DNA of 64,000 nt from Rhodospirillales bacterium (GTDB lineage Bacteria > Pseudomonadota > Alphaproteobacteria > Reyranellales > Reyranellaceae), in the NCBI GenBank assembly GCA_947469635.1, contig CANIRG010000001.1, positions 2,824 to 66,823 on the forward strand, given 5' to 3'. Below the pieces are notes generated by a model. It ran no database searches. It worked only from the letters and a program-made list of their open reading frames with translations, and was not told where the DNA came from. Every line of letters starts with the position of its first letter. Within the stretch, counting starts at the first letter, position 1. Below, piece by piece: positions 46,488 to 64,000 of the stretch. Position numbers and translations under genes: made by a program.

Positions 46488-47270
46488 CTAATGATCCGCC
46501 GCGATCGCCTCGACGCGGATCTCTTCGGTGAGGCGGGCCTTGAGCGCCATGAACTCGGGTGAGGTCTTGATCGTGTAGTGGCGGGGGTGGGGGAAGTCGG
46601 AGGCCACCTCGGCCTTGATGCGGCCGGGCCGGGCGCTGAACACCACCACGCGGTTGGCCATGAAGATCGCCTCGTCGATGTCGTGGGTGACGAACAGCAC
46701 CGTCTTGCGCGCCCGCTCCCAGATGCCGAGCAGCAGCTCCTGCATCAGCACGCGCGTCTGGTTGTCGAGCGCGCCGAAGGGCTCGTCGAGCAGCAGGATC
46801 TTGGGATCGTTGGCGAGCGCGCGGGCGATGGCCACGCGCTGCTGCATGCCGCCGGAGAGCTGCTTGGGGAAATGATCCTCGAAGCCGCGCAGGCCCACCT
46901 GGGCGATGAAGCGCTCGCTGATCTCGCGCTGCTCGGCCAGCGGCAGGCCCTTTTCGCGCAGGCCGAAGCAGATGTTCTGGCGGACGTTCAGCCAGGGAAA
47001 CAGCGTGTAGCTCTGGAACACCACGCCGCGGTCGGCGGCCGGTCCCCTCACCGCCGCGCCGTCCAGCAGGATGTCACCCGTCGTCGGCGTTTCGAGGCCG
47101 GCAACGAGGCGCAGCAGGGTGGACTTGCCGCAGCCCGAGGGGCCGAGGACGGTGATGAAGTCGTTGTCCGCGACGTCGAGGCTGATGGGCTGCAGCGCCT
47201 GCGTCGGGGCGGCGCCACGGCGCACGCCGGGAAAGGTCTTGCCGATGCTTCGGATCTCGAGCCGGCTCAC
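46488..47270 (-). CDS. ABC transporter ATP-binding protein (NitT/TauT type)
   Basis: GTG start. [28 protein letters not shown]. Confidence 0.92.
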   Translation of the reverse strand: MSRLEIRSIGKTFPGVRRGAAPTQALQPISLDVADNDFITVLGPSGCGKSTLLRLVAGLETPTTGDILLDGAAVRGPAADRGVVFQSYTLFPWLNVRQNICFGLREKGLPLAEQREISERFIAQVGLRGFEDHFPKQLSGGMQQRVAIARALANDPKILLLDEPFGALDNQTRVLMQELLLGIWERARKTVLFVTHDIDEAIFMANRVVVFSARPGRIKAEVASDFPHPRHYTIKTSPEFMALKARLTEEIRVEAIAADH

Positions 47271-48043
47271 CGCATGAAACTCCAGGCGAAAAGCCGCTGG
47301 TTGACCCATTTGAACGACAGGTCGGAGAGCAGCCCGACCAGCCCGATCACCACGATGCCGGCGATGATGTGGTCGGTTGCCATCAGCGCCTGGCTGTCGG
47401 TGATCATGTGGCCGATGCCCGAGGAAGCGCCGATCAGCTCGGCGACGATGATGTAGGTCCAGCCCAGCCCCAGCACCTGGCGCAGCGCCTCGGCGATCTC
47501 GGGCGCGGCGCCGGGCAGCAGCACGCGGCGGATGACGCCGATGTCCTTGCAGCCGAGCGTGTAGGCGGCCTCCACCAGGTCGCGGCGCGTGGCGGCCACG
47601 ATCATGGTGATCATGAGCGTGAGCTGGAAGAAGCAGCCGATGAAGATGACGGTGAGCTTCTGCGCCTCGCCGATGCCGACCCACAGGATCAGCAATGGGA
47701 TGAAGGCCGAGGCCGGCAGGTAGCGTGCGAAGGACACGAAAGGCTCGAAGAAGGCCTCGATCGGCTTGTAGGCGCCCATGGCGATGCCCAGCGGCACCGC
47801 GATCACCGCCGCCATCAGGAAGCCGCCGACCACGCGCCAGACCGTCATGCCGACATCGAAAGCGAACTTCTGCGCGGCGAACAGATCCCAGCCCGACAGC
47901 AGGGTCTGCAGTGGCGTCGCCAGGAAGTGCTTGGGCACGAAGCCGCCCCAGGTCAGGACACCCCACAGCGCGACGAAGCCGACGAAGAACGCCACGCCCA
48001 GCAGGATCCGGCTTTCGCGCGTCACGGGGACGAGCAGCTTCAT
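47267..48043 (-). CDS. ABC transporter permease (NitT/TauT type)
   Basis: RYLPASAFIPL, LVEAAYTLG, IVAELIGA. Confidence 0.92.
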   Translation of the reverse strand: MKLLVPVTRESRILLGVAFFVGFVALWGVLTWGGFVPKHFLATPLQTLLSGWDLFAAQKFAFDVGMTVWRVVGGFLMAAVIAVPLGIAMGAYKPIEAFFEPFVSFARYLPASAFIPLLILWVGIGEAQKLTVIFIGCFFQLTLMITMIVAATRRDLVEAAYTLGCKDIGVIRRVLLPGAAPEIAEALRQVLGLGWTYIIVAELIGASSGIGHMITDSQALMATDHIIAGIVVIGLVGLLSDLSFKWVNQRLFAWSFMR

Positions 48044-48080
48044 GCCGGCCTGCCGGGCGTGGACTTCCTGGTCGTCAACG

Positions 48081-49043
48081 TCAGTTCAGGAACGTCGTGT
48101 CGAACAGCGAATCCATGTTGGCTGGCGCCGTCTTGATGACGCCGATTTCCAGCAGCAGCTCGGCGGCTTCCTTGTTGAAGGCCTGGATCTCGCCATTGAA
48201 GAACTTCTTGTTGGCCTCGCGGTCGGCCCACTTGATCTTGGACTGCGACTTCTCGAACTGCTCGGCCGTCTGCTTGACGTCGGCGCCCATGATGGTGAAT
48301 GCCTTCTGCTTATCCTTGGCGATCAGGTCGATCGCCTGGAAGTAGCTGTCGGCCAGCGCCTTGGCGGCCTTTGGGTTCTCCTTGATGAACTTCGGCGTGC
48401 AGCCGAAGGTGTCGAACACCATCGGATACTGGAGCGAATCGGCGATCAGCTTGCCCGACTCGGGCTTGTCCCGGACGAGGCTGAGATAGGGCTCGTAGGT
48501 GACGGCGGCGTCGAGATCGGAGGTTCCGGCGACGAAGGCGGTCGCCGCGGCGGCCGGCTCGAGCGTCACGAGCTTCACATCCTTCAGCGACAGGCCGTTC
48601 TTCTTCAGGATCCAGGCCAGCGTGAAGTGCGGGTTGGTGCCGGGCGCCGAGGCGGCGACGGTCTTGCCCTTGAGGTCCGTGACCTTGTTGATGGCCGGGC
48701 GGGCGACGATACCGTCGGAGCCCATGCCCTGGTCCATCTTGAAGAGCTGCGTCGTGGGGATGCCGTTGGTGTTCCAGACGATCCAGGTCTCCACGGTCGT
48801 GGCGGCGCACTGGATGTCGCCGGAGGCGATGGCGAGGTGGCGGTCCTTCTGGGGAATCTTCCTGATCGTGACGTCGAGGCCGTTGGCCTTGTAGATGCCG
48901 GCCTCCTTGGCCAGGGTCAGAGGCGCGAAGCCGGTCCAGCCGGAAATGCCGATGCCGACCTTCGTCTCTTGCGCCGAGGCATTGCCCTCGAAGGCGCCGG
49001 CCAGGGCGAGAGCGCCGAGGACGGTCTTGATGGATGAGGACAT
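48081..49043 (-). CDS. ABC transporter substrate-binding protein (NitT/TauT/SsuA-like)
   Basis: Sec signal, SGWTGFAPL, DLKGKTVA, AAVTYEPYL. Confidence 0.9.
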   Translation of the reverse strand: MSSSIKTVLGALALAGAFEGNASAQETKVGIGISGWTGFAPLTLAKEAGIYKANGLDVTIRKIPQKDRHLAIASGDIQCAATTVETWIVWNTNGIPTTQLFKMDQGMGSDGIVARPAINKVTDLKGKTVAASAPGTNPHFTLAWILKKNGLSLKDVKLVTLEPAAAATAFVAGTSDLDAAVTYEPYLSLVRDKPESGKLIADSLQYPMVFDTFGCTPKFIKENPKAAKALADSYFQAIDLIAKDKQKAFTIMGADVKQTAEQFEKSQSKIKWADREANKKFFNGEIQAFNKEAAELLLEIGVIKTAPANMDSLFDTTFLN

Positions 49044-49054
49044 CTAAATCTCCG

Positions 49055-49867
49055 TTAGCTTGCTGCGGGGTAGACGACGGGAAAGATCGGCGCGTCGAAC
49101 GGGTCGCCGTCGGCGAGGGTGAGTTCGGGAAGCGGTGGCGAGGTCCTGCCGGCGCGCTTGGCATAGACGGCGTCGTCGCCCACCCAGCGGGCGGAGAAGA
49201 CGCGGCGGGGGCGTGTCGACTTGTTGGCGGGCGCCCCGTGGACAGTGCGGAAGCTGAAGGCGATGGCGTCGCCCGGCTGCATGTCCCAGCCGGCAATGTC
49301 GAGACTGTCCTTCATCGCCTCGATGTCGGGCATCGGCTCGAAGTCGTCCTTCTCGTAGAGCCGGGTGCCGTCGAAGCGCATCGGCCGAAAACCCTTGCCC
49401 CAGAGATGCGAGCCGCTGATGCACTCCATCACGATGTCGCGCGGCACCGGATCGAGCGGGATCCAGAAGCTCACGCTCTGCTGGCCCTCGACGCAGTAAT
49501 AGGGCTGGTCCTGGTGCCACGGCGTGACGGTGCTGCTGCCGGGTTGCTTCACCAGCACGTGGTCGTGGAAGAAGCGCGCCGTCCTCGACCGCATCAGCCG
49601 CGCGGCGATCTCGCCGGCGTTGGATTCCAGAACGAACGACCGGAACTGCGGGATACGCTGCCAGTTGCACAGGTCCTGGAAAAAAGGTGCCGAGCCATCC
49701 GCCGGCCGCACTGTGCGTTCGAGCGGGCTGGGATCGGCCATCAAGGCGTCGATGCCGGCACGCAGGGTTTCGATCCAGGGGCTGAAGACCTGTCGCAGAA
49801 CGACGACCCCATCCCTTTGATAGGACGCCGTCGTGTCGCCCAGTGCCTGGTCCACGTTTCCGCTCAT
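49055..49867 (-). CDS. Fe(II)/2-oxoglutarate dioxygenase, PhyH (phytanoyl-CoA dioxygenase) family
   Basis: TPWHQD (HxD), WIPLD, GSHLW, PGDAIAF...TVHGA..N...RR. RBS AGGAGA. Confidence 0.9.
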   Translation of the reverse strand: MSGNVDQALGDTTASYQRDGVVVLRQVFSPWIETLRAGIDALMADPSPLERTVRPADGSAPFFQDLCNWQRIPQFRSFVLESNAGEIAARLMRSRTARFFHDHVLVKQPGSSTVTPWHQDQPYYCVEGQQSVSFWIPLDPVPRDIVMECISGSHLWGKGFRPMRFDGTRLYEKDDFEPMPDIEAMKDSLDIAGWDMQPGDAIAFSFRTVHGAPANKSTRPRRVFSARWVGDDAVYAKRAGRTSPPLPELTLADGDPFDAPIFPVVYPAAS

Positions 49868-49890
49868 GCCTCTCCTATACAGCACAAGTC

Positions 49891-49916: not shown

Positions 49917-51497
49917 CTACGCCCGGCCATAGCCGCCGCCGCCCGAAGTCTCCATGACGACACGGTCACCCACGGCGAGCGCCAAGTTCTCCTTGCCCGA
50001 GAGCTCGCGGCTGCCGCCGGCGGCGCGGTGGAGGGTGACGCGGAAGGGCTTGCCGTCGGCGCCGCCCTGCATGCCGTAGGGCGGCACGACACGGCGCTCG
50101 AACATGGTGGTGAGCGACAGGCCTTCGCCCAGGACCGTGTAGGCACGCACCATGCCTTCGCCGCCTTTATGCTGCCCGGCACCACCTGAGCCGGTGCGCA
50201 GCCGCTGCTCGTCGACCCGGATCATATATTCGGCCTCGACGATCTCGGCCGGCGTGTTCATGGTGTTGGTGAGATGGACGCGGACCACGGGCGTGCCGTC
50301 GCGATCGATGCGCGCGCCTTCGCCGCCGCCATGGGTTTCGTAGAAGGTGCCCGTGGCGCCGTCGCGTCGCTTGCCGCCGAAGATCAGCAGCCCCGCCGTC
50401 GTCGATCCGCCGGCCGTCAGCCGCTCCGGCACGGCCTTCTCGAAGGCCTTCATGATGGCGTCGACGGCGCGCTGCGAGGTCTCGTGGTTGCCGCCGACCA
50501 CCGGCTTGTCGATGCCGGGTTCGAGGATCGAGCCCGGACGGGTGCGGATCTCGAGCGTGCGGTAGCAGCCGCCGTTGGGCTGGATCTCCGGCCCGGCCAC
50601 CGCCTTGATGGCGTAGTAGACCGCGGCCATCGCGACGAACGGCGTGGTGTTGAGCGGACCGGCCACGGCATCGTCGGTGGCGCTGAAGTCGAAGCTCGCA
50701 TGGTCGCCCACGATTTCTATCCTCACGCGGATGGCGGCGGGCTGTCCGCCCGGACCGTCATCGTCGAGGAAATCCTCGCCCTCGTAGATGCCGTCGGGCA
50801 GGCCGGCGATGGCCTCGCGCATCTGCGCCTCGGAGAGATCGTCCAGCCGGTCGAGCGCGGCGCGGATGGTGGCCGCCCCATGCTCCTCGCACAGCCGCAC
50901 CAGCCGCGCTTCGGCGGCCCGCGTCGAGGCCATCTGGGCCATCAGGTCGCCTTCGCGCTCGGCGGGCCCGCGGATGTTGGCGAGCAGGAAGTCGCGCTTC
51001 TCCTCGTCGATGCCATCCGACGTGAACAGGCGCAGGGGCGGGATGCGCACGCCCTCCTGCCAGGTCTCGGTTGCTGCCGCGAAATAGCTGCCGGCCCAGG
51101 CCCCGCCGATATCGCCCCAATGAGCGAGGCTCACGGCAAAGGCAAAGAGCTGGCCTTCGAGAAAGATCGGCCGGATCGCCTTCACGTCGGGGAGATGGTT
51201 GCCACCGACCTCGGGCAGGTTGAGGAACCACACGTCGCCCGGCCGCAGCCGTTCGGCCGGCACGCGTTCGAGGAATTTCTTCACCGTGAAGCTCATCACG
51301 CCGAGATGGATCGGGATGTCGCGACCCTGCGCGATCAGGTCGCCCTTGTGGTCGGTGATGGCGGACGAGAGATCGCCCGCCTCGCGCAGCAGCGGCGAGC
51401 GGGCGGAGCGCATGACGACGAAGGACATCTCCTCGGCGGCGGCCGTCAGCGCGTGGCGGATGACCTCGACGGTGAAGGGATCGACCGAGTTTCTCAT
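49917..51497 (-). CDS. Hydantoinase B / 5-oxoprolinase beta-type subunit (copy 1)
   Basis: SARSPLLREAGDLSS, IPIHLG, GGNHLPD, AHWGDIGG, QEGVRIPP, NTPAEIVE, GSGGAGQHKGG, SGGGGYG. Confidence 0.92.
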   Translation of the reverse strand: MRNSVDPFTVEVIRHALTAAAEEMSFVVMRSARSPLLREAGDLSSAITDHKGDLIAQGRDIPIHLGVMSFTVKKFLERVPAERLRPGDVWFLNLPEVGGNHLPDVKAIRPIFLEGQLFAFAVSLAHWGDIGGAWAGSYFAAATETWQEGVRIPPLRLFTSDGIDEEKRDFLLANIRGPAEREGDLMAQMASTRAAEARLVRLCEEHGAATIRAALDRLDDLSEAQMREAIAGLPDGIYEGEDFLDDDGPGGQPAAIRVRIEIVGDHASFDFSATDDAVAGPLNTTPFVAMAAVYYAIKAVAGPEIQPNGGCYRTLEIRTRPGSILEPGIDKPVVGGNHETSQRAVDAIMKAFEKAVPERLTAGGSTTAGLLIFGGKRRDGATGTFYETHGGGEGARIDRDGTPVVRVHLTNTMNTPAEIVEAEYMIRVDEQRLRTGSGGAGQHKGGEGMVRAYTVLGEGLSLTTMFERRVVPPYGMQGGADGKPFRVTLHRAAGGSRELSGKENLALAVGDRVVMETSGGGGYGRA

Positions 51498-53515
51498 GTC
51501 GCGCTCTCCTTGATCCAGAGATGACCCATCGCATCGGCGCTGGCCGTGTAGCCGGGCGGGACGATGACCGTGGCCCACGCATCCTCGATCACCGCCGGGC
51601 CGGCGATGCGCACAGCTGCCGGAAGGCGGTCGCGGTCGTAGCGCGGCGTCTGATGGGGGGCCGAGGGCTCGAACCAGCAAGGGCTGACGCTCATGGGCTC
51701 CGGCTGGCCGCGCTGCTCGACGAGAGGTCCGAACTTCGTATGGCGAGGAACGAGCGCCCGCATGCGGAGGCTTTGCATCTCCCAATGCTCGTCCGTTGCG
51801 TAGCCGTAGATCGTACGATGGCGTTCGCGAAAATCGTGACCGAGCTTCTGCAGGTCGAGCCGCTCGGCAAAGGGCACCTCGACGGCGTAGCTCTGGCCGA
51901 CGTAGCGAACCAGGGCCGTGCGCTCGACGGCGATCTCCTTTGCGCTGTGCCCCTGGCGGTGCAGCGGCTCCATGAGGGTCGCCAGCATGCCGTCGTGGAG
52001 GGCCCCGAAGCGTGTGGGATCCCACGTGGTGCTGAGCAGCCGCACCGCCTGCTGCTGGGTGTAGCTCATGTCGGCCACGATGCAGCCCAGCGCCGAGAAG
52101 CCAGAAGAGAAGCGCGGCACGACGATCTCGGCGATGCCGAACTCGCGCGCGAGCCTTGCGGCGTGCATGGGGCCCGCGCCGCCAAAGGCCAGCAGCGTGC
52201 ATTGCCGTCCGTCGACGCCACGCTCGACAGTGACGCGCGCCAGCGCCCGCACCATCGTGGCGTTGGCCACGCGCTGCACGCCCAGCGACAGCGCGACGAC
52301 GCTGATACCGAGACGTTGGGCAAGCGGCGCGAGCGCGGCCTCTGCTGCCGCGACATCGAGGGTGATGGCGCCGCCCAGGCGTCGCGCGGGATCGAGATAG
52401 CCCAGGACGGCGTTGGCGTCGGTGACGGTGGGGCGCGTGCCGCCGCGGCCGTAGGCTGCGGGACCGGGCTCGGCGCCGGCACTCTCGGGGCCGATCGACA
52501 GGCCGCCGGTGCCTATCATCACCAGCGAGCCGCCGCCGGCGCCGATCGATTCGACGGCGACCATGGGCTGGCGCACGGGCCGGCCCGCGAGCTTGGAATC
52601 GGTAGAGATTTCGGCAGCACCATTGGCGATCAGGCAGACATCCGTCGTCGTGCCGCCCATGTCGAAGCTCAGCACCTTTTCGAGCCCGAGCGACGCCGCG
52701 ACATAGGCGGCAGCCGATACGCCGGCCGCGGGGCCGGAGAGGGCCATGGAGAGCGGGCGCCGGGCGGCCGCTTCCGGCGAGGCCATGCCGCCCGCCGAAT
52801 GCATCACATGCAGGCGCGCGCCTTTGACCTCACGCTGCAGGCGATCGAGATAGCGGGCAGCGATCGGCATGACCGAAGCGTTGAGCACGGTCGTAGCGGT
52901 GCGCTCGAACTCGCGGGTCTCGGGATTGACCTCGTGCGACAGAGAGACGAAGGGCACGGCCGCCGCCAGCGCCGTCCCGACGGCGCGCTCGTGCGCGGGA
53001 TTGGCGTAGGAATGCAGCAGCGACACCGCGACGCTTTCGACGCCGGCCGCCTTCACCTGGCGCACGGCTTCGGCGATGGCGGCTGCATCGGGCACGAGCA
53101 CCGCCTTGCCGGTATGGGCGACACGCTCGGCCAATCCAACTCGCCGCTCCGTCGGCACCTGTGCCGCGCGGCGGGGCGGCAGGTCGAGGCGGTAGAGATG
53201 CTGGCGGCCGGCGCGGCCGATATCGAGCACATCCTCGAAGCCGCGCGTCGCGACCAGCACCACCGGCTCGACGCGATCCTCGACGATGGCGTTGGTGACC
53301 AGCGTCGTGCCGTGCACGAGGTCGGCCACGTCCTCGGCCAACAGGTCAGCGGCGGCGAGGGCTGCCTTGATGCTGGCGACGGGATCGTTGCGCTGCGTCG
53401 GCACCTTGATCGAGCGGACTTCGCCGGTGGACGGCAGCAGCGCCACCAGGTCGGTGAAGGTGCCGCCGATATCGATGCCGACCTGCCAGCCGGTCTTCGG
53501 CACTCCATCGGCCAT
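51494..53515 (-). CDS. Hydantoinase A / 5-oxoprolinase ATP-binding subunit (copy 1)
   Basis: GIDIGGTFTD, HGTT..TNA, EFERTATT, SGPAAG, DMGGTTTD, IGAGGGS, PTVTDAN, FGGAGPMHA. Confidence 0.93.
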   Translation of the reverse strand: MADGVPKTGWQVGIDIGGTFTDLVALLPSTGEVRSIKVPTQRNDPVASIKAALAAADLLAEDVADLVHGTTLVTNAIVEDRVEPVVLVATRGFEDVLDIGRAGRQHLYRLDLPPRRAAQVPTERRVGLAERVAHTGKAVLVPDAAAIAEAVRQVKAAGVESVAVSLLHSYANPAHERAVGTALAAAVPFVSLSHEVNPETREFERTATTVLNASVMPIAARYLDRLQREVKGARLHVMHSAGGMASPEAAARRPLSMALSGPAAGVSAAAYVAASLGLEKVLSFDMGGTTTDVCLIANGAAEISTDSKLAGRPVRQPMVAVESIGAGGGSLVMIGTGGLSIGPESAGAEPGPAAYGRGGTRPTVTDANAVLGYLDPARRLGGAITLDVAAAEAALAPLAQRLGISVVALSLGVQRVANATMVRALARVTVERGVDGRQCTLLAFGGAGPMHAARLAREFGIAEIVVPRFSSGFSALGCIVADMSYTQQQAVRLLSTTWDPTRFGALHDGMLATLMEPLHRQGHSAKEIAVERTALVRYVGQSYAVEVPFAERLDLQKLGHDFRERHRTIYGYATDEHWEMQSLRMRALVPRHTKFGPLVEQRGQPEPMSVSPCWFEPSAPHQTPRYDRDRLPAAVRIAGPAVIEDAWATVIVPPGYTASADAMGHLWIKESAT

Positions 53516-53520
53516 GATCG

Positions 53521-54220
<700 letters not shown>

Positions 54221-54240
<20 letters not shown>

Positions 54241-54991
54241 GACCCAGATAGGCTTCCAGCACCTTGGGGTCGGCGCGGACCTCGGCTGGGGTGCCTTCGG
54301 CGATCTTCTCGCCGAAGCTGATGACGGCGATGCGATCGGCGACGCGCATCACGAGACCCATATTGTGCTCGACGAGGACCAGTGTGAGGCCCTGCGTGCG
54401 CAGCTCCTCGAGGATGCCGCGCAGCCGGTCGACCTCGCTGGAGTTGAGGCCGGCCGCCGGCTCGTCGAGCAGCAGCAGCTTGGGCTTGGACACCAGCGCG
54501 CGAGCGATCTCGACCATGCGCTGGCGGCCGTAGGCGAGGGAGCCGACCAGCCGATCGGCATCCTCGGTGAGGCCGAGCGTCGCCAGCAGCGTGCTGGCGC
54601 GCTCACGGATCTCGCCCATGCGGCGCTGGGCGGTGCCGCCCACGATCGCCGACCAGACCGACTGGGGCAGGAGATGATGGGCGCCCACCAGCACGTTCTC
54701 CATCACCGTGAGGCGCTGGAACAACCGTCCATTCTGGAAGGTGCGGACCATGCCGGCCGAGGCGACGAGGTGGGCGGCGGCATCGGTGATGTCGCGATCC
54801 TCGAACCGCACCTTGCCGCCGGAGCTGCGCAGGATGCCGGTCAGCACGTTGATCAGCGTCGTCTTGCCGGCGCCGTTGGGACCGATCACCGAGTAGATCA
54901 GGCCGGCGGGAATGGCGAGCGACACCGCCTGCACCGCCTGCACGCCGCCGAAATTCTTCGACAGGCCGTCGATAGCGAGGATGGTGGTCAT
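54221..54991 (-). CDS. Branched-chain amino acid-type ABC ATP-binding protein (LivG-like)
   Basis: GPNGAGKTT, RTFQN, LLLDEPAAGLN, VEHNM, EAYLG. Confidence 0.93.
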
Positions 54992-55947
54992 CGGCCGACC
55001 ATCCCGAGGCGGCGTGCGACGATGCCTGTGAGGCTGATCAGCCCCTTGGGCAGGAAGATCAGGATCAGCAGCATCAGCCCGCCGAAGACGATGAGGTAGG
55101 CGGTGCCGAGATCGCGCATCAGCTCGGGCATGAAGGTGACGATGACGGCGCCGGCGATGGCGCCCAGGATCGAGCCTTCACCGCCGATGATCAGCATGGC
55201 GAGATAGATGACGGAGTGGCCCAGCGCGAAGTCGTCGGGTGCCACGAAGTTGGTCATGTGCGCGAACAGCGCGCCCGCGAGGCCGGCATAGAGGGCGGAG
55301 AGGGCAAATGCCTGGACCTTGATGCGCGTCACGCCCACCGACGCTGCACCGGTCGCGATCTCGTCGTCGCGGACGGCGATCATGGCGAGGCCGATGTGCG
55401 AGGTGCGGATGCGCCAGGCGCACCAGGTGGCGACGGCGAGAGCCACCCACAGCACGTAGTAGTAACGGTGGTCGGTGGCGAGCGGCCAGCCGGGGAGCGC
55501 CAGCGGCGGGATGCCGGAGATGCCGTCGGTGCCGCCCATCACCGATTTCCAGTTGGTGGCGACGATGACGAAGGAGACGTTGAAGCCCAGTGTCGCCAGC
55601 GCGAGGTAATGGCCCTTGAGCCGCAGCATCGGCAGGCCGATGACGACCGCTATGACGCAGGCGCCGACCGCGCCGGCCGGGATGGAAAGCCACGGCGAGA
55701 GGCCGAGTGTCGTCGACAGGATCGCCGTGACATAGGCGCCGCAGCCGACGAAGCCCGCCTGGGCGAGCGTGATCAGCCCGGCATAGCCGAAGGCGAAGTT
55801 GAGGCCGATCACGGCGATGGCCGAGATCAGCGCCAGGTTGAGGATGCGGATGCCGTAGCCGCTGATGAAGGCGGGCAGCACCAGCGCCGCCACGAAAACC
55901 GCGATGGCGGCGAGCAGGCGGCGATCCATCGTGCGCAGGGCCGTCAT
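54988..55947 (-). CDS. Branched-chain amino acid-type ABC permease (LivM-like)
   Basis: GYAGLITLAQ, LRLKGHYLALATLGF, AVRDDEIA, PKGL. Confidence 0.92.
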   Translation of the reverse strand: MTALRTMDRRLLAAIAVFVAALVLPAFISGYGIRILNLALISAIAVIGLNFAFGYAGLITLAQAGFVGCGAYVTAILSTTLGLSPWLSIPAGAVGACVIAVVIGLPMLRLKGHYLALATLGFNVSFVIVATNWKSVMGGTDGISGIPPLALPGWPLATDHRYYYVLWVALAVATWCAWRIRTSHIGLAMIAVRDDEIATGAASVGVTRIKVQAFALSALYAGLAGALFAHMTNFVAPDDFALGHSVIYLAMLIIGGEGSILGAIAGAVIVTFMPELMRDLGTAYLIVFGGLMLLILIFLPKGLISLTGIVARRLGMVGR

Positions 55948-56822
55948 GCGCGCTCCCCGATACGTTCGCCGAAGATGCCTTGCGGGCGAACCAGCAGGAA
56001 CAGGATCATGACGAGAAAGACGAGGCCGTCCTTGTAGGCCGACGAGATGTAGGCGGCGCCCAGCATCTCGGCGAGGCCGACCAGGATGCCGCCGACGATG
56101 GCGCCGGGCACGCTGGAGAAGCCGCCGATGATGATGGCGGCGAAAGCCTTGAGCGCGATCGGGTCGCCCATGTTGACGTCGGCGAACCACATCGGGCCCA
56201 CGAGGATGCCAGCCGCGCCGGTGAGGAGGCCCGCGATCACCCAGGTCAGCACGAACATGCGATCGACGCCGATGCCCATCAGCCGCGCGGCGTCGCGATC
56301 CTGCGCCACCGCCCGCATGCGGGCGCCGATGGCGGTGCGATAGATGAAGAGATAGAGGAGGCCAATCAGCAGGAAGGCGATGGCGATCACGAACAGCGCG
56401 TGCGCCGAGATGGCCGCGCCGAACACGTCGACCACCTGCCGGCCAAACGGCGAGCGCGGCCGGAAAGGCACCGAGCCCCAGGTCATGAGGGCGGAGTTCT
56501 GGATCACGATGCCGATCATCACCGTGCCGATGATGACGGTGACGACGGGGCGATCCTGCAACGGGCGGAACACCACGCCGTAGAAGACGATGCCGAACAG
56601 CGCCATGGCGGCCAGCGCCAGCGCATAAGCCGGCCCCAGCGGCAGCTCCATCTGGATGCCGGTGGTGACCGACAGGAAGCAGCCGATCGCCACCATCTGT
56701 CCGGTGGCGAAGTTCACCACGCCGGTCGCCTCGTTCACCATGATGAACGCAAGCCCGACCAGCGCATAGACCGAGCCGACGGCAAGGCCGCTCACGATGA
56801 GCTGGATGAATTGCTGCGACAA
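55944..56822 (-). CDS. Branched-chain amino acid-type ABC permease (LivH-like)
   Basis: TTG start. GSVYALVG, GVVNFA, MRAVAQDRDAARLMGI, KAFAAIIIGG, RPQGIFG. Confidence 0.92.
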   Translation of the reverse strand: MSQQFIQLIVSGLAVGSVYALVGLAFIMVNEATGVVNFATGQMVAIGCFLSVTTGIQMELPLGPAYALALAAMALFGIVFYGVVFRPLQDRPVVTVIIGTVMIGIVIQNSALMTWGSVPFRPRSPFGRQVVDVFGAAISAHALFVIAIAFLLIGLLYLFIYRTAIGARMRAVAQDRDAARLMGIGVDRMFVLTWVIAGLLTGAAGILVGPMWFADVNMGDPIALKAFAAIIIGGFSSVPGAIVGGILVGLAEMLGAAYISSAYKDGLVFLVMILFLLVRPQGIFGERIGERA

Positions 56823-56845
56823 ATTTCTAACCCGATCTTCGCTCA

Positions 56846-56871
56846 GGGCGCGCCATTCCAGTGGCGCGCCC
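56846..56871. other. Perfect 10-bp stem-loop between the binding-protein and permease genes (probable mRNA stabilising/attenuating hairpin)
   Basis: GGGCGCGCCA-TTCCAG-TGGCGCGCCC immediately downstream of the binding-protein stop codon. Confidence 0.55.
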
Positions 56872-56892
56872 CCAGCGATGACGTTTGTGGCA

Positions 56893-58053
56893 TCACGCCG
56901 TGATGGTGCGGATGAACACCGGATCGCGGGTGCCCGGCTTGATCGAGAACACGGCCAGGGAATGGACCATGTTGCCGAGCTCGTCGGTGGTGAAGATATT
57001 GGTGATGCCCTTGTAGTCCTTCACCGCCTTCAGCCCGTCGCGGACCTTGGCGCGGTCGGTGCCGACCTTGTCCATCACCTGCTTCATGATCCAGGCGCCA
57101 TCGTAATAGCAGGAGCCGAACGGATCGGGATCGACCTTGAAGCGGTCCTTGAAGCTCTTGATGTAGGCCGCGACATCGGGGCCGCGCTCGGGCGCCAGGT
57201 AGGCGTCCATCACGCCGTTGACCTTGGCGAGCTCGTCTGGCGCGATCAGGTTGCGCGCCGCCGGCACCATGACGCCGGAGGAGATGACCACCGGGATGTC
57301 GATGTTCATTTCCTTCAGCAGCTTCAGGACCAGCGCGCCGTCCTTGCCGTAGCTGATGCAGATCAGGCAGTCGGCGCCGGCACCCTTGAGCTTCTGCAGC
57401 TGCGCCGACATGTCGTTGTCGGTGAAGGCATAGGCCTCCATGCCGACGACCGCCGCGCCCGCCGCCTTCACCACCTTCTCGGCGGCGACGGCGCCCGGCT
57501 GGCCGAAGTCGTTCTGCACGTAGATGATGCCGATCTTCTTCTTGCCCAGGCCTTCGGTCGCATGCTTGGCGAGCGCCAGCGCCTGCAGCCCGTCGTGGGG
57601 GCGGATGCGGAACAGCCACGGGTTCTTCTTCACATGCATGGCGTCGCCGCCGCCGGCATACATGCCGGGGATCATCGCCTTGGTGACTTCCGGCTCGGTG
57701 GCGAGGTTCTGGGTCGTGTAGCTCGACAGGAAGACCAGCGGCGGGTTGATGTCGCGCACCACCTTGAGATAGGCGTTGACCGCGACGCTGTTGGAATCCT
57801 TCACGTCCTCGAAGACGATCTTGAGCTTCTTGCCGGCGACGCCGCCCTTGGCGTTGATCTCGTCCTGCGCCATCTGCAACGAGAAGTGATACTGCTGGCC
57901 CGAGACGTTGAAGGGGCCCGTGATGGGCACCATGGCGCCGACCGCCACCTCGCCCGACTGCGCGGAAAGACGTGGTGTGTAGATGGTGATGCCGGCGCCG
58001 GCCACCATGCCCGAGAGCGCCGTGCGGCGCGTGATCAGTTGTTTCTTGCCCAT
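56893..58053 (-). CDS. LivK/LivJ-type ABC substrate-binding protein, Tat signal
   Basis: TRRTAL leader, EINAKGGVAGKKL, WLFRIRPHD, QNDFG, YKGIT. Confidence 0.9.
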   Translation of the reverse strand: MGKKQLITRRTALSGMVAGAGITIYTPRLSAQSGEVAVGAMVPITGPFNVSGQQYHFSLQMAQDEINAKGGVAGKKLKIVFEDVKDSNSVAVNAYLKVVRDINPPLVFLSSYTTQNLATEPEVTKAMIPGMYAGGGDAMHVKKNPWLFRIRPHDGLQALALAKHATEGLGKKKIGIIYVQNDFGQPGAVAAEKVVKAAGAAVVGMEAYAFTDNDMSAQLQKLKGAGADCLICISYGKDGALVLKLLKEMNIDIPVVISSGVMVPAARNLIAPDELAKVNGVMDAYLAPERGPDVAAYIKSFKDRFKVDPDPFGSCYYDGAWIMKQVMDKVGTDRAKVRDGLKAVKDYKGITNIFTTDELGNMVHSLAVFSIKPGTRDPVFIRTITA

Positions 58054-58090
58054 GCCCCTAATCCCCCTTGGTCGATGAAATGTCTCTCGT

Positions 58091-59770
58091 TCAGTCCGCT
58101 GCCTCGGTCGACGGATACCAGCGCTCCGCCTCCTCGGCCGTGATGTAGCCGCGCTTGATGTCGAGCCGCACCCGCGCCGGATCGCGCTCGCTGGGTAGGC
58201 CATAGCCGCCACCGCCAGGCGTGCGGACCTGCACCCAGTCGCCGGGCTCGAGCTCGTAGCCTTCGCCCTTCGACAGATGCTCGGGCGTCGTCGTGACACC
58301 CTTCTGCTGCACGCGCAATTCGTTCACCGCCCCCGGCGCGCCGCCGATCAGGCCGGGCGGTCCGTCGCGCCCGTGATCCATGAGGAACGACGCCTTCGCG
58401 CTGCCGCGCAGCAGCCGCACCCGGTAGTTGACGCCGTACCCGCCGCGATGCCGGCCGGCGCCCGAGGAGCCCTCGCGCAGGGCATATTCCTCGAACAGCA
58501 GCGGATAGTGCTGCTCCAGGATCTCGACCGGCTGGGTCTTGGAGATGCCGACCGTCGAGCAGCCGTTGGTGAGGCCGTCGGTCTCCCACCAGCCGCCGTA
58601 GCCGCCGCCGGAGAAGAAATACATGATGTAGTTGCGATCCTCGCCGGGATCGTAGCCGCCCAGGGTGAAGTTGCCGCTGGTGCCGGCGGGCGAGGCGAAC
58701 ATGCGGTCGGGGATCGCCTGGCCCATGGCGCCGAACACCGCCTCCATGACCCGCTGCGCCACTTCCGAGGCACAGCCGGCCACGGGACGCGGATACTCCG
58801 CCACCAGGAAGGTGCCGGTGGGCTTGGCGATGTCGAGCGGCGCGAAGCAGCCCGAATTGATCGGCACGTCGGGGAAGATGTGCTTCATGGCGACATAGAC
58901 CGCCGACTGGGTCGAGGCCCACACGCCGTTCAGCGGCCCCTTGCAGGGCGGGCTGGAGCGCGAGAAGTCGAAATGCACCTCCGAGCCGCGCACCGTGAGA
59001 TCGAGGGCGATCTCCAACGGCACGTCGACGATGCCGTCGCTGTCGATGAAGCTCGAGAAGCTGTAGGTGCCGTCGGGCACGCCCTCGATATAGGCGCGCA
59101 TCTGCTGCTCGGAGCGCGCCTTCAGCTCGGCGATGGCCTGCTCCACCACATCGGCGCCGTAGCGGTCGAGCAGGGCGGTCAGCCGCCGCTCGCCCACAGT
59201 CAGCGCGCCGACCTGGGCCTTGATGTCGCCGATGCGCTCTTCGGGCACGCGGATGTTGCTCAGCACGAAGTCGACGATGTCGGTGCAGAGCTCGCCCCGG
59301 CGGTAGAGCTTCACGGGCGGGATGCGCAGGCCTTCCTGCTGGATCTCGGTTGCCTTGGTGGCGAAGCCGCCCGGCACCATGCCGCCGGTGTCGGGCCAGT
59401 GGCCGGTGTTGGACAGGTAAGCCCAGAGCTTGTCCTTGTAATAGAACGGCTTCACCATCTTCACGTCCATGAGATGGGTGCCGCCGAGGTACGGATCGTT
59501 GATCAGGATGACGTCGCCCGGCTCGAGATCCTTGCGCCGCTCGATCACCGCCTGGGTGGTGAACTGCATGACGCCGACGAAGATCGGCAGGCCCATCTCG
59601 CCCTGGGCGATGACCTCGCCCGTCACCGGATGATAGATGCCGTTGGAGCGGTCGAAGGCCTCGGAGATGACCGGCGAGAAGGAGGTCTTCTCGTGCACGA
59701 GATCCATCTCGCTCGCGATCTGACGCAGGCCGTTCTGGATGACGGCGAGGGTGACAGGATTAAGCGCCAT
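58091..59770 (-). CDS. Hydantoinase B / 5-oxoprolinase beta-type subunit (copy 2)
   Basis: SFSPVISEAFD, NDPYLGGTHLMD, GHWPDTGG, QEGLRIPP, PVEILE, TPGGGGYG. Confidence 0.93.
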   Translation of the reverse strand: MALNPVTLAVIQNGLRQIASEMDLVHEKTSFSPVISEAFDRSNGIYHPVTGEVIAQGEMGLPIFVGVMQFTTQAVIERRKDLEPGDVILINDPYLGGTHLMDVKMVKPFYYKDKLWAYLSNTGHWPDTGGMVPGGFATKATEIQQEGLRIPPVKLYRRGELCTDIVDFVLSNIRVPEERIGDIKAQVGALTVGERRLTALLDRYGADVVEQAIAELKARSEQQMRAYIEGVPDGTYSFSSFIDSDGIVDVPLEIALDLTVRGSEVHFDFSRSSPPCKGPLNGVWASTQSAVYVAMKHIFPDVPINSGCFAPLDIAKPTGTFLVAEYPRPVAGCASEVAQRVMEAVFGAMGQAIPDRMFASPAGTSGNFTLGGYDPGEDRNYIMYFFSGGGYGGWWETDGLTNGCSTVGISKTQPVEILEQHYPLLFEEYALREGSSGAGRHRGGYGVNYRVRLLRGSAKASFLMDHGRDGPPGLIGGAPGAVNELRVQQKGVTTTPEHLSKGEGYELEPGDWVQVRTPGGGGYGLPSERDPARVRLDIKRGYITAEEAERWYPSTEAAD

Positions 59771-61817
59771 GGTTGCCTCCGACCGCGATCACGAGATTGC
59801 CCAGGGCATCGACGGTGGCCGTCGAGCCGGGATCGATCAGCACCGTGGTGTCGAGCTGGGTGACGATGGCCGGCCCCGGCACCGTGGCACCGACCGGCAG
59901 CGCCTCGCGCACGTAGAGCGACGTGTCGAGCCAGACGCCATCGAAATAGACCTTGCGGCTGCCTTTGCGCGCGGCCTCGAGGCTGCCGCCCGGCTCGGGC
60001 GCGAAGGCCGCGAGGTCGATGGCGGCGCGCTTGCCGATCACGGTCGTGCGCAGGTTGGACAGGATCGCCGTCATTTCCGTGAGCTCGATGTCGAAGCGCT
60101 CCTTGTAGCGGGCTTCGAGGCTCTTCAGCACCTTCGCGGCATCGAAGGCGCCTTCGACCGTGACGCGGATCACGTGGCTCTGGCCGCGATAGAGAAGGTC
60201 GGCCTCATGGATCGCGACGATGCCGTCGACCGGCACGTTCTCCTCGGCGATGAGCTTCTCGCCCTGGACGCGTTGCGCGGCGAAGGCCGCATCCATGGCG
60301 GCGGGATCGGCATCGAGCAGCGGCACGCCGATGGTGCGGACGAAGTCGTGGCGCAAATCGCCCAGGATGCAGCCCAGCGCCGAGGTGAGGCCGGGGAAGC
60401 GCGGCACCAGCACGGTCGGCATGCCGAGCTCGCGGGCCAGCGCCACGGCGTGCAGGGGACCCGCGCCGCCGAAGGGAAAGAGCGCGAAGTCGCGCGGATC
60501 GTAGCCCTTCTCGATCGAGACGAGCCGGATGGCGCTGGCGAGATGATTGCTGGCGACGGCCACGATGGCGGCCGCCGTCTCGATGGCATCGAGCCCGAGG
60601 GTCGCGCCGACCGCCTCGACCAGTCGCTGCTTCACCTGCTCGAGCGCGACGGCATTGTTGACGCCGGGCAAGGTGGCGAGATCGAGCCTGCCCAGCACCA
60701 GGTTGGCGTCGGTCACCGTGGGCTCCGTGCCGCCGCGGCCGTAGCAGATCGGTCCCGGCGTGGCGCCGGCACTCTGCGGCCCGACCTGCAGCAGGCCCGC
60801 CTTGGTGATGCGCGCGATCGAGCCGCCGCCGGCGCCGATCGTGTGGATGTCGATCATCGGGATGCGGATCGGCACGCCATAGGCGATGTCCTTCTCCGCC
60901 GAAAGCGCCGGCTCGCCGTTGCGGATCAGCGTCACGTCGAAGCTGGTGCCGCCCATGTCGCAGCCGATCAGGTTGAGATGGCCGGACTGCTTGCCGATAT
61001 GCCCCGCGGCAAGCGCGCCAGCCGCCGGTCCCGACATCACGGTCTGCACCGCATAATCCGACGCGATCGTGCCCGTCATCGTGCCGCCGTTGCCCTGCAT
61101 CACCAGCAGCTGGCTGCGGAAGCGGGCGAGCTTCAGCTCCTTCTCCAGCCGCCCGAGGTAGCGCGACATGATCGGCTGGATATAGCCGTTCAGCGCCGCC
61201 GTGCTGGTGCGTTCGAACTCGCGAACCTCGCGCAGGATGTCGGCGCCGACCGAAACGAAAGCCGTGGGCCAGATCTCCCGCGCGATCTCGCGGGCGGTCT
61301 GCTCGTGCGCGGGGTTGGCGTAGGAATGAATGAAGCTGATGACCAGCGCTTCGGCGCCGAGATCGAGAAGCCGGCGCATGGCCGCGCGCACCGCATCGGT
61401 GTCGAGCGGGATCACGACGTTGCCTTTGGCGTCGATGCGCTCCGGCACCTCGAGTCGCAGCTCGCGCGGGATGAGCGCCTCGAAGCTGCCGATCATGCCG
61501 TAGCCGAAGGGCCGCGTGCGGCGGCCGAGCTCCAGCACGTCGCGGAAGCCCGCGGTGGTGATCAGGCCGCAGCGTGCGCCCTTGCGCTCGAGGATGGCAT
61601 TGGTGCCGACCGTCGTGCCGTGCACCAGCGCCGACAGGTCTTCGACCGCGATGCCGCTGTCGCGCAATCCCGACAGCATGCCGCGCGACTGGTCGTCGGG
61701 AGTCGAGGGGACCTTGACGACGCGGAACCGGTGCGCGCCTTCGTCGACGAACAGCAGGTCGGTGAAGGTGCCGCCGACGTCGATGCCGGCCTGCCACTTG
61801 TTTGGCGAAGTATTCAT
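59760..61817 (-). CDS. Hydantoinase A / 5-oxoprolinase ATP-binding subunit (copy 2)
   Basis: GIDVGGTFTD, HGTTVGTNA, EFERTST, SGPAAG, DMGGTSFD, IGAGGGS, FGGAGPLHA. RBS AAAGGGAG. Confidence 0.93.
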   Translation of the reverse strand: MNTSPNKWQAGIDVGGTFTDLLFVDEGAHRFRVVKVPSTPDDQSRGMLSGLRDSGIAVEDLSALVHGTTVGTNAILERKGARCGLITTAGFRDVLELGRRTRPFGYGMIGSFEALIPRELRLEVPERIDAKGNVVIPLDTDAVRAAMRRLLDLGAEALVISFIHSYANPAHEQTAREIAREIWPTAFVSVGADILREVREFERTSTAALNGYIQPIMSRYLGRLEKELKLARFRSQLLVMQGNGGTMTGTIASDYAVQTVMSGPAAGALAAGHIGKQSGHLNLIGCDMGGTSFDVTLIRNGEPALSAEKDIAYGVPIRIPMIDIHTIGAGGGSIARITKAGLLQVGPQSAGATPGPICYGRGGTEPTVTDANLVLGRLDLATLPGVNNAVALEQVKQRLVEAVGATLGLDAIETAAAIVAVASNHLASAIRLVSIEKGYDPRDFALFPFGGAGPLHAVALARELGMPTVLVPRFPGLTSALGCILGDLRHDFVRTIGVPLLDADPAAMDAAFAAQRVQGEKLIAEENVPVDGIVAIHEADLLYRGQSHVIRVTVEGAFDAAKVLKSLEARYKERFDIELTEMTAILSNLRTTVIGKRAAIDLAAFAPEPGGSLEAARKGSRKVYFDGVWLDTSLYVREALPVGATVPGPAIVTQLDTTVLIDPGSTATVDALGNLVIAVGGNHGA

Positions 61818-61875
61818 CGGACTCCCTTTCGCCAAGCGATCAATTCACGCCAAGGGTCGCTGCACAAGGACTTAG

Positions 61876-61891
61876 TGCAATTGTAGTGCCA
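61876..61891 (-). promoter_or_regulatory. Sigma54 (-24/-12) promoter for the hydantoinase/Liv operon
   Basis: Minus strand TGGCACTACAATTGCA is an exact match to TGGCAC-N5-TTGCA, about 60 bp upstream of ATG 61817. Confidence 0.78.
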
Positions 61892-61913
61892 CCCTGCCGC
61901 CAAGGATCGCCAC

Positions 61914-61929
61914 TGGCCCGCCGCTTGCT
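61914..61929 (+). promoter_or_regulatory. Possible sigma54 promoter for the amidohydrolase gene
   Basis: TGGCCCGCCGCTTGCT (GG-N10-GC). The implied transcription start falls at about the ATG (61941), i.e. nearly leaderless. Confidence 0.42.
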
Positions 61930-61940
61930 TCCCTTGAGGA

Positions 61941-62999
61941 ATGGCCCTCCCGCTGATCGACGTCCACACCCACATGTACCTGCCACGCTACGTCGCACTG
62001 CTGCGCGAGCGCCAGCAGGTGCCGCGCATCGTCTCCCGCGCCAAAGGCGATCGGTTGATCATCCTGCCCGACGAAGAGGCGGATGGTTCGACCTCGGCCG
62101 GCCGGCCGATCGGCAGTGAGTTCTATGAGGTGAGCCGCAAGCTCGCCTTCATGGACCAGCATGGTATCGCCGTCTCGGTCGTGAGCTCGGCCAATCCCTG
62201 GATCGATTTCGTGGAGCCGGCCGAGGCGCCGGCACTTGCCGCCCAGCTCAACGAGGATCTCGAATCGATCTGCGCCGCGTCCAATGGTAGGCTCTATGGC
62301 TTCGGCGTGCTGGCGCTGCAGCGGCCCGAGACCTGTGCCGCCGAGCTGAAGCGCATCGCCGGCCTGCCGCATATGCGCGGCATCATCATCGGCTCGGCCG
62401 GACGCGGGCGCGGTCTCGACGATCCCGACTTCGAGCCGATCTGGAAGGCCGCCGCCGACCTCGATCTCTTCGTCTTCATCCATCCCCACTACGGCATCGG
62501 ACACAGCCTCTTCCCCGACACCGGCCATGCGCTGCTGCTGGCGCTGGGCTTCACCTTCGAGACCTCGATCGCGGTGTCGCTCCTCATCCTGCGCGGCGTG
62601 CTGGAACGCCATCCCGCGTTGAAGCTGCTGATCGCCCATGCCGGCGGCACGCTGCCCTATCTCGCCGGGCGCCTGGACTCCTGCGTGAAGAACGACATCT
62701 CCAAGGATTTCGGCCTGTCCAAGCCGCCCAGCCACTATCTGCACCAGTGCTGGTTCGACGCCATCGCCTATCACGCGCCGGCACTGGCGGCGCTCACTGC
62801 CTTCGCCGATCCGGCCAAGATCATGTTTGGCACCGACCATCCGTTCTTCCGTCCTCACGTGACAGACGACGTGCTCGACAAGACGACCTGGCCCTCGCCC
62901 GAGGAGAATCTTGCGGCGCTGTCGGCCATGAGCCCCGAGGTGCAGAAGGCGATCGCCTACGAGAACGGCCTGAAGGCCTTCGGCATCGCGCTGCCTTAG
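61941..62999 (+). CDS. Amidohydrolase_2 (ACMSD-like) decarboxylase, uracil-5-carboxylate (isoorotate) decarboxylase-like
   Basis: IDVHTHMY, AGRPI, SANPW.DF, FIHPHYG, LALGF.FET, AHAGGTLPYLAGRLDSC, MFGTDHPFF. Confidence 0.85.
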   Translation: MALPLIDVHTHMYLPRYVALLRERQQVPRIVSRAKGDRLIILPDEEADGSTSAGRPIGSEFYEVSRKLAFMDQHGIAVSVVSSANPWIDFVEPAEAPALAAQLNEDLESICAASNGRLYGFGVLALQRPETCAAELKRIAGLPHMRGIIIGSAGRGRGLDDPDFEPIWKAAADLDLFVFIHPHYGIGHSLFPDTGHALLLALGFTFETSIAVSLLILRGVLERHPALKLLIAHAGGTLPYLAGRLDSCVKNDISKDFGLSKPPSHYLHQCWFDAIAYHAPALAALTAFADPAKIMFGTDHPFFRPHVTDDVLDKTTWPSPEENLAALSAMSPEVQKAIAYENGLKAFGIALP

Positions 63000-63808
63000 C
63001 GGCTGTCGTAGATCCGGATGACGACCGCTTCGAGCGCGAGGAAGAAGGTGAACAGCACGATGCCGACGCCGCACAGCAGCAGGATGCTGGCGAGCAGCAA
63101 TGCGGTCTCGAAATTGTTGGCCGAGAACAGGATGATGTAGCCCAGCCCCACCTGGGCGGTGATGAACTCGCCCAGCACCACGCCGATCACCGCGAAGGTG
63201 ACGCCGATGCGCAGGCCGCTGAAGATATGCGGCAGGGCGAAGGGGAATTTTACGCGCAGGAACATCTGCGCGCGCGACATCATCAGGGAGCGGCAGAGCC
63301 GCTCGTAGTTGGGCGGTGCGGCCTGCAGGCCGGCGATGGTCGCCACCACGACGGGGAAGAAGGCGATGAAGACGGAGAAGATCACGTTGGCGGCAAAGCC
63401 GGTGCCGAACCACAGCAGGAAGACCGGCGCCAGCGCCACCTTGGGAATGAGCTGGAAGAAGACGATGGTGGGATAGACCGCCTGCATCAGCGTGCGCGAA
63501 TAGGAGACGGCGGCGCCGAGCGCGATGCCAAGAGCTGCGGCCAGCACAATGCCGGCAACGGCACCCCAGAAGGTGGGCTGCGCCTGGTCCAGCAGGATAC
63601 TCAGCGAGCGCATCAGCGTGTCGAACACCTTGCTCGGGGCGGGCAGGAGACGTGCGCTCACCAGCCCGTTGCGGCTGGCCAGCTCCCAGCCGCCGAACAG
63701 CAGCGTCGCCGCGGCCAGCGGTGGTGCGATCAGCCTTGCGCCGTCGCGACCAAGGCCGGCGAAATCCGGCCAGGTGAGGCGGCGCAGCGGCAGGCCGATG
63801 TCGGTCAT
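62996..63808 (-). CDS. ABC transporter permease (NitT/TauT type)
   Basis: LLPAPS, QLIPKVALAP, ALPHIFSGLR, VIGVVLGEF. Confidence 0.9.
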   Translation of the reverse strand: MTDIGLPLRRLTWPDFAGLGRDGARLIAPPLAAATLLFGGWELASRNGLVSARLLPAPSKVFDTLMRSLSILLDQAQPTFWGAVAGIVLAAALGIALGAAVSYSRTLMQAVYPTIVFFQLIPKVALAPVFLLWFGTGFAANVIFSVFIAFFPVVVATIAGLQAAPPNYERLCRSLMMSRAQMFLRVKFPFALPHIFSGLRIGVTFAVIGVVLGEFITAQVGLGYIILFSANNFETALLLASILLLCGVGIVLFTFFLALEAVVIRIYDSR

Positions 63809-64000
63809 TCGCCGTGCCAGCGCCGGACGGCGACTTCGCCCGCGTGGACCGCGCCGTAACAGGCGAGGCCGATGACGCAGAGCATCGTGATCGCGGCCAA
63901 TATGAGGTCGGTCTGCAGCAGGGCCGCGCTCTTCAGGATGAGGAAGCCCAGGCCTTCCGAGGAGGAGATGAATTCGGCCACGATGACGCCGATCACCGCC
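63805..64000 (-). CDS. ABC transporter permease (NitT/TauT type), only C-terminus in window
   Basis: AVIGVIVAEFISSSEGLGFLI... Stop overlaps the next permease start; the 5' part lies beyond the window. Confidence 0.82.
   Translation of the reverse strand, partial: AVIGVIVAEFISSSEGLGFLILKSAALLQTDLILAAITMLCVIGLACYGAVHAGEVAVRRWHGE

Follow-up and report, generated by a model that had tools for sequence, protein, structure and literature searches.

The locus analysed here raises the question whether a reaction described from fungi, the conversion of 5-carboxyuracil to uracil by isoorotate decarboxylase (IDCase), is also encoded in a bacterium and, if so, how the substrate would reach the enzyme. 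The gene lies in the window, i.e. the whole 64,000-nucleotide stretch of DNA that was analysed (Table 1). It begins with ATG, an in-frame TGA (61935-37) stands directly 5' of the reading frame, and the product matches Pfam Amidohydro_2 only, with no NCBIfam family matched. All motifs from which the sequence-only reading had proposed a bacterial IDCase were found in the translation. The host is Reyranella-like, with a genome that is 88% complete, and Reyranella proteins are the closest named relatives of the decarboxylase in the homolog listing. Sequencing runs containing the stretch are mostly from freshwater. GC content is flat across the window (64-70%) with no island signal, and no plasmid match at E 1e-50 was obtained among 72,556 records.

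Table 1. Coordinates and strands of the decarboxylase gene, its neighbours and the predicted promoters in the window.
Feature	Position	Strand	Evidence
IDCase-clade amidohydrolase_2 decarboxylase, 352 aa	61941..62999	+	PDB search, fold match, 11/11 named residues
Predicted sigma-54 (-24/-12) promoter, 12 nt before ATG	61914..61928	+	motif in 44/48 Reyranella loci
Predicted divergent sigma-54 promoter TGGCAC-N5-TTGC, for hydantoinase/ABC operon	61877..61891	-	consensus in available part of PMC8743547
Hydantoinase/oxoprolinase subunit A, divergent neighbour	59760..61835	-	
Hydantoinase/oxoprolinase subunit B	58091..59770	-	
ORF holding LIV-type ABC binding protein (true start probably internal); orthologue in 13 related loci	56893..58299	-	
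NitT/TauT-type ABC permease, last gene of convergent NMT1/THI5 importer operon; stop overlaps decarboxylase stop	62996..63808	-	
Second permease of importer, 3' end	63805..64000	-	

A phmmer search against the PDB placed five distinct IDCase sequences on top (E 6.4e-76 to 6.4e-72), above human ACMSD (2.4e-24), LigW (5.5e-23) and gamma-resorcylate decarboxylase (gamma-RSD, 3.9e-18). Superposed as a whole fold, the AlphaFold model of the decarboxylase (pLDDT 91.2) favours IDCase (TM up to 0.93, Z 47.5, rmsd 1.8 over 347 residues) over ACMSD (TM about 0.80, Z 36.5, rmsd 2.6 over 323 residues). ACMSD-like rows fall apart from the IDCase clade in a quick tree of 103 rows, as checked for L028, which is ACMSD-like, and a careful tree of 47 rows recovers one clade at 100/98 versus 13 more distant rows. 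In this clade the decarboxylase groups with fungal IDCase homologs and not with ACMSD, with annotated ascomycete homologs standing in for the assayed Cordyceps and Neurospora sequences. The proposal that the protein is an IDCase homolog rather than an ACMSD or LigW is thus borne out by E-values, fold scores and tree grouping, and the IDCase clade has in this product a true bacterial member. That it is instead a standard ACMSD, or decarboxylates aromatic acids in the manner of LigW/gamma-RSD, as the automatic JGI names imply and as the common fold and metal ligands would allow, is scarcely credible given that the E-values lie about 50 orders of magnitude and the Z scores 11 units apart, that the tree splits off the ACMSD-like rows, and that the positions of R68 and N98 are missing from LigW and gamma-RSD in the available part of PMC6305744. 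Many ACMSD-labelled database entries within the IDCase clade are probably misnamed.

With the fungal IDCases of Cordyceps militaris (4HK5/4LAM) and Metarhizium anisopliae (4HJW) the decarboxylase shares the Amidohydro_2 fold, about 40% identity, the clade and all 11 of the residues named for metal binding, catalysis and ring binding; identity to fungal relatives overall is only 38-44%. Unlike them, it resides in a bacterial host, without an adjacent or clear thymine 7-hydroxylase (T7H), has a genomic link to an NMT1/THI5 ABC importer as well as to predicted sigma-54 promoters, and contains a shorter insertion preceding the GRP motif. ACMSD (human, Pseudomonas fluorescens) belongs to the same superfamily and has the same metal-binding scaffold, but is only about 24% identical. 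LigW and gamma-RSD resemble IDCase in the ortho-hydroxy acid decarboxylation chemistry proposed for it, but take phenolic acids.

In fungal IDCase, following the available part of Sheng et al. 2018 (PMC6305744), Mn is present in the enzyme, the metal ligands are His12, His14, His195 and Asp323, the carboxylate is bound by His251 and Arg262, the ring is stacked by Phe222, Phe326 and Phe327, and ring hydrogen bonds are provided by Arg68 and Asn98, both absent from LigW and gamma-RSD. C5 is protonated by Asp323 prior to CO2 loss, and the inactivity on phenolic acids is credited by the authors to R68 and N98. Mapped by hand count along the phmmer alignment to 4LAK, these 11 residues are all identical in the decarboxylase, i.e. 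the metal ligands (IDCase/decarboxylase) H12/H9, H14/H11, H195/H181 and D323/D299, the carboxylate binders H251/H233 and R262/R244, and the ring readers R68/R55, N98/N85, F222/F204, F326/F302 and F327/F303. The Arg of GRP and the Asn of ANPW, previously suggested to be intact ring-binding residues, are hence R55 and N85 and match Arg68 and Asn98 by sequence alignment. Among 120 listed homologs, 116 of 280-520 aa were aligned and 110 had all 11 columns filled; all 11 residues are identical in 109 of these 110 close homologs, and R55 in every one. By analogy with the fungal enzyme (PMC6305744), O4 and the carboxylate would be bound by a divalent metal, Mn or Zn, coordinated by H9/H11/H181/D299, R55 and N85 would recognise the uracil ring at N1/O2 and N3-H/O2, and C5 would be protonated by D299 as CO2 departs. 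The likeliest reaction of the decarboxylase is 5-carboxyuracil to uracil, and we consider this enzyme activity, taken alone, likely.

The pairing of related genes with plausible partners is in agreement with this assignment. On L132, a eukaryote-like intron-bearing contig outside the trees, an IDCase-like gene stands head-to-head with a 2OG oxygenase whose best structural match is Neurospora T7H (E 3.7e-81; next match 2.7e-42) and which has 11/11 of the T7H residues, a set taken from the available part of PMC4787775. The intron-bearing IDCase-like gene and this T7H orthologue (L132:1722-3841) constitute the fungal pathway pair in an apparently non-fungal eukaryote. On the giant-virus contig L123/L169, a uracil phosphoribosyltransferase (UPRT) gene (NF001097, 159 bits; cut-off 114) lies 38 nt downstream of an IDCase-like gene, forming a viral uracil-salvage pair (L123/L169:7998-9694, IMG/VR giant-virus MAG contig, GC 22%). 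It is the only viral contig found to carry an IDCase-like gene, and Amoebophrya is the nearest tree neighbour of its protein (100/99). A substrate-making T7H and a product-using UPRT beside non-fungal-looking members support 5-carboxyuracil to uracil as the reaction of the clade. More distant homologs adjoin nitrilase, allantoinase-like, BMP-type ABC, OMP decarboxylase, uridine phosphorylase and DHPON-hydrolase-like genes.

The same chemistry could serve a near-isostere of 5-carboxyuracil (2,6-dihydroxynicotinate, 5-carboxycytosine or 2-thio-5-carboxyuracil) as the physiological substrate, which we judge quite unlikely. Fungal IDCase accepts 5-carboxycytosine and the 2-thio analogue (available part of PMC6305744), and 2,6-dihydroxynicotinate would retain the ortho-oxo acid, the ring NH and the distal carbonyl read by N85; pyridines did not turn up in a term search of the supplement to Sheng et al. 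2018. Downstream of the distant homologs L143 and L149 there is also a gene related to 2,6-dihydroxypseudooxynicotine hydrolase (E 7.8e-31 for L149), but this neighbour is confined to an outer grade, outside the clade of the decarboxylase, whereas T7H, UPRT and NMT1 proteins are among the neighbours in its clade and family, and the invariant R55 is the reader of ring N1.

The genomic surroundings bear on how 5-carboxyuracil would be supplied. The decarboxylase gene is divergent from a hydantoinase/LIV-type ABC operon and convergent with a NitT/TauT-type ABC operon, which continues past the window on contig C1 with an ATPase and an NMT1/THI5 binding protein, followed by a divergent FAD monooxygenase and a cupin. 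The monooxygenase, which we take to be HpyO-like, gave no useful match in NCBIfam or the PDB. Of 23 Reyranella loci whose downstream DNA spans 7.5 kb or more, 20 have the binding protein. Across 130 Reyranellaceae genomes both genes are found in 22, the decarboxylase alone in one (60% complete), the binding protein alone in four and neither in 103; the binding protein is thus present in 22/23 decarboxylase-positive genomes versus 26/130 overall, among kin that are not independent. In the more distant bacteria L108 and L113 (53-56% identity), the decarboxylase is the last gene of a same-strand NMT1 ABC operon, and in L107/L110 and L116 it is flanked by other transporter types. The best PDB match of the binding protein is a pyrimidine (FAMP) binding protein, at a weak E of 4.6e-8. 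Against import, the Reyranella importer is convergent with the decarboxylase and not co-transcribed. In three loci, a gene of the 8-oxoguanine-deaminase family is inserted next to the importer; the one in L095 scores above the cut-off.

The four importer-only genomes have an FAD monooxygenase alongside, variously with creatininase-like, cytosine-deaminase and Rieske genes. The importer there occurs without the decarboxylase, so its cargo need not be 5-carboxyuracil. Three of these loci, L160 (G519), L162 (G459) and L163 (G497), combine the FAD monooxygenase with creatininase-like genes, with paired Rieske genes at L160 and L162 and a cytosine-deaminase gene at L160; possibly they serve pterin or purine breakdown.

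Upstream regions of the decarboxylase gene have the motif TGGC-N7-TTGC in common, which fits the RpoN consensus in the available part of PMC8743547, where rutA is listed as an RpoN target. In 44 of 48 Reyranella loci it lies no more than 132 nt from the start, compared with an expectation of 0.005 per locus given its genome frequency (two of 50 loci were left out, their upstream DNA missing), and it is directly upstream in 0/13 non-Reyranella loci, several of which are operon-internal. Where the gene starts with ATG, the motif stands 11-13 nt from it in 13/14 loci, a spacing from which a leaderless mRNA is likely; for the decarboxylase of the window, transcription is predicted to begin at 61940-41. 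Among loci with other starts, the distance is 34-61 nt in 31/34, usually with a ribosome-binding-like sequence by eye. The motif also precedes the importer, the FAD monooxygenase and two of three rutA starts, one full rutA being without it, and rpoN is present in the genome. Overlapping back-to-back sigma-54 motifs are located between the importer and the FAD monooxygenase/Rieske gene (contig C1, window-equivalent 66465-66495), an arrangement conserved in most of 17 loci examined. No sigma-70 promoter or terminator was found in 61600-63200, and no NtrC box in 30 kb around the decarboxylase gene, so that nitrogen control is only inferred; sigma-54 also serves non-nitrogen pathways (available part of PMC8743547).

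We propose that the NMT1/THI5 ABC importer next to the gene likely takes up 5-carboxyuracil, that importer and decarboxylase are under predicted sigma-54 control, and that the decarboxylase would convert the imported base to uracil and CO2, after which uracil is likely salvaged by Upp or degraded for nitrogen by RutA; cargo and nitrogen-scavenging role are here read from context only. This pathway as a whole appears fairly probable. The genome encodes upp, the UPRT for uracil reuse, on contig C104, unlinked to the decarboxylase, as well as two full rutA and two dihydropyrimidinase genes, and no thymidine kinase was found in what is an 88%-complete assembly. The Rut operon of E. coli likewise has an RpoN-bound promoter (available part of PMC8743547); unlike there, the decarboxylase would be a step feeding in from an unlinked locus.

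The sequence-only reading proposed that the bacterium may recycle oxidised thymine or 5-methylcytosine bases. Such recycling inside the cell is not supported for either base, as no route to 5-carboxycytosine emerged and no T7H-like partner was found in the 88%-complete genome. Seven DIOX_N genes are present, one cut by a contig end; the six full-length 2OG oxygenases keep 7-8/11 of the T7H residues, so that none has the full set in this 88%-complete genome, where absence is not proven, and none adjoins the decarboxylase, the best being 37% identical to the L132 T7H. Import is therefore favoured over a fungal-type in-cell pathway. Alternatively, a non-T7H oxygenase (Rieske, FAD monooxygenase or 2OG) may oxidise imported thymine or 5-hydroxymethyluracil to 5-carboxyuracil within the cell, amounting to a bacterial thymine-to-uracil demethylation, a variant that comes near the sequence-only proposal. 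An FAD monooxygenase (14 loci) and/or a Rieske oxygenase (10 loci) indeed adjoins the importer operon, as does a DIOX_N 2OG oxygenase in three loci, but the locus-linked 2OG enzyme is far closer to other structures than to T7H (1.8e-67 versus 2e-35), and the neighbouring Rieske protein has no match in this genome at E 1e-25. A 2OG enzyme with 9/11 T7H residues occurs in ten Reyranellaceae genomes, five of which have the decarboxylase, compared to 23/130 overall; the other five, however, lack it. Rut acts on uracil or thymine and can thus attack thymine directly, and we regard in-cell oxidation as unlikely. The 9/11 enzymes (L171-L180), mostly encoded between hisA and hisF in Reyranella, are candidate bacterial thymine hydroxylases.

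The decarboxylase gene is rare and patchy, being present in 23 of 130 Reyranellaceae genomes, 0/400 other Alphaproteobacteria genomes sampled and 0/300 genomes sampled from the phylum, the latter sample overlapping that of the class. The family is nevertheless wider than fungi and this bacterium, including oomycete, alveolate, giant-virus and other bacterial members; named bacterial members are Reyranella, including Reyranella soli (L004), Rhodopila and Rhodospirillales MAGs, and named eukaryotic ones Phytophthora, Cunninghamella, Suillus, Neolecta, lichen fungi and Amoebophrya. The 100/98 clade comprises 13 alphaproteobacterial-type, 9 fungal or fungal-type, 10 protist-like or unassigned, 1 giant-virus and 1 other-bacterium rows, many grouped by neighbours, clustering or sequence features rather than named taxonomy. 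The 13 distant rows of the careful tree keep much of the motif, and L149 among them still matches IDCase best. Some MAG labels are likely wrong, as L001, L002 and L014-L016 are titled Rhizobium, Asaia and Enhydrobacter despite Reyranella-like sequence and synteny.

A tree constrained to place eukaryotes and the virus apart from prokaryotes was not rejected (p-AU 0.64, lnL 5.7 higher) and has Alphaproteobacteria as sister to eukaryotes (SH 96.5). Two quick trees had pointed to transfer from eukaryote to bacterium, a reading that was abandoned because the careful tree is indecisive and the split is allowed. The careful tree gives no resolved order within the clade and, with the eukaryote/virus split not rejected, is compatible with transfer between bacteria and eukaryotes in either direction. 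The protist-like homologs P0048, P0066, P0091, L120 and L122 have Arg/Ser/Ala-rich N-terminal extensions that by eye resemble mitochondrial presequences. From the constrained topology and these extensions stems an alphaproteobacterial-origin reading. In its full form, Reyranella and scattered Alphaproteobacteria would run an undescribed sigma-54-controlled import of oxidised thymine-type bases with 5-carboxyuracil decarboxylation for nitrogen and uracil, and their enzymes would also be what survives of the sister group to all eukaryotic IDCases, the 'fungal' enzyme coming from Alphaproteobacteria, possibly via the mitochondrion; this combination we hold to be doubtful.

A literature search, with most subscription journals outside its reach, found no paper on bacterial IDCase. 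A metagenome-derived bacterial isoorotate decarboxylase was reportedly described from Lithuania in 2018; if so, the activity in bacteria is already known. New here are the conserved sigma-54-type promoter motif, the co-occurrence with the NMT1/THI5 importer, and upp and rutA in the host. The findings probably widen the range of a reaction described from fungi to include bacteria, protists and a giant virus. They point to a candidate bacterial sink for oxidised thymine that can be tested, and they add naturally divergent IDCases to the material for the long-running search for 5-carboxycytosine decarboxylation.

Elsewhere in the window, two hydantoinase/oxoprolinase A+B pairs flank a LIV-type ABC transporter (49917-61835, minus strand), with a third pair outside it on contig C1, and a PhyH-family dioxygenase lies upstream of an SsuA-like binding protein and permease (47267-49885, minus strand).
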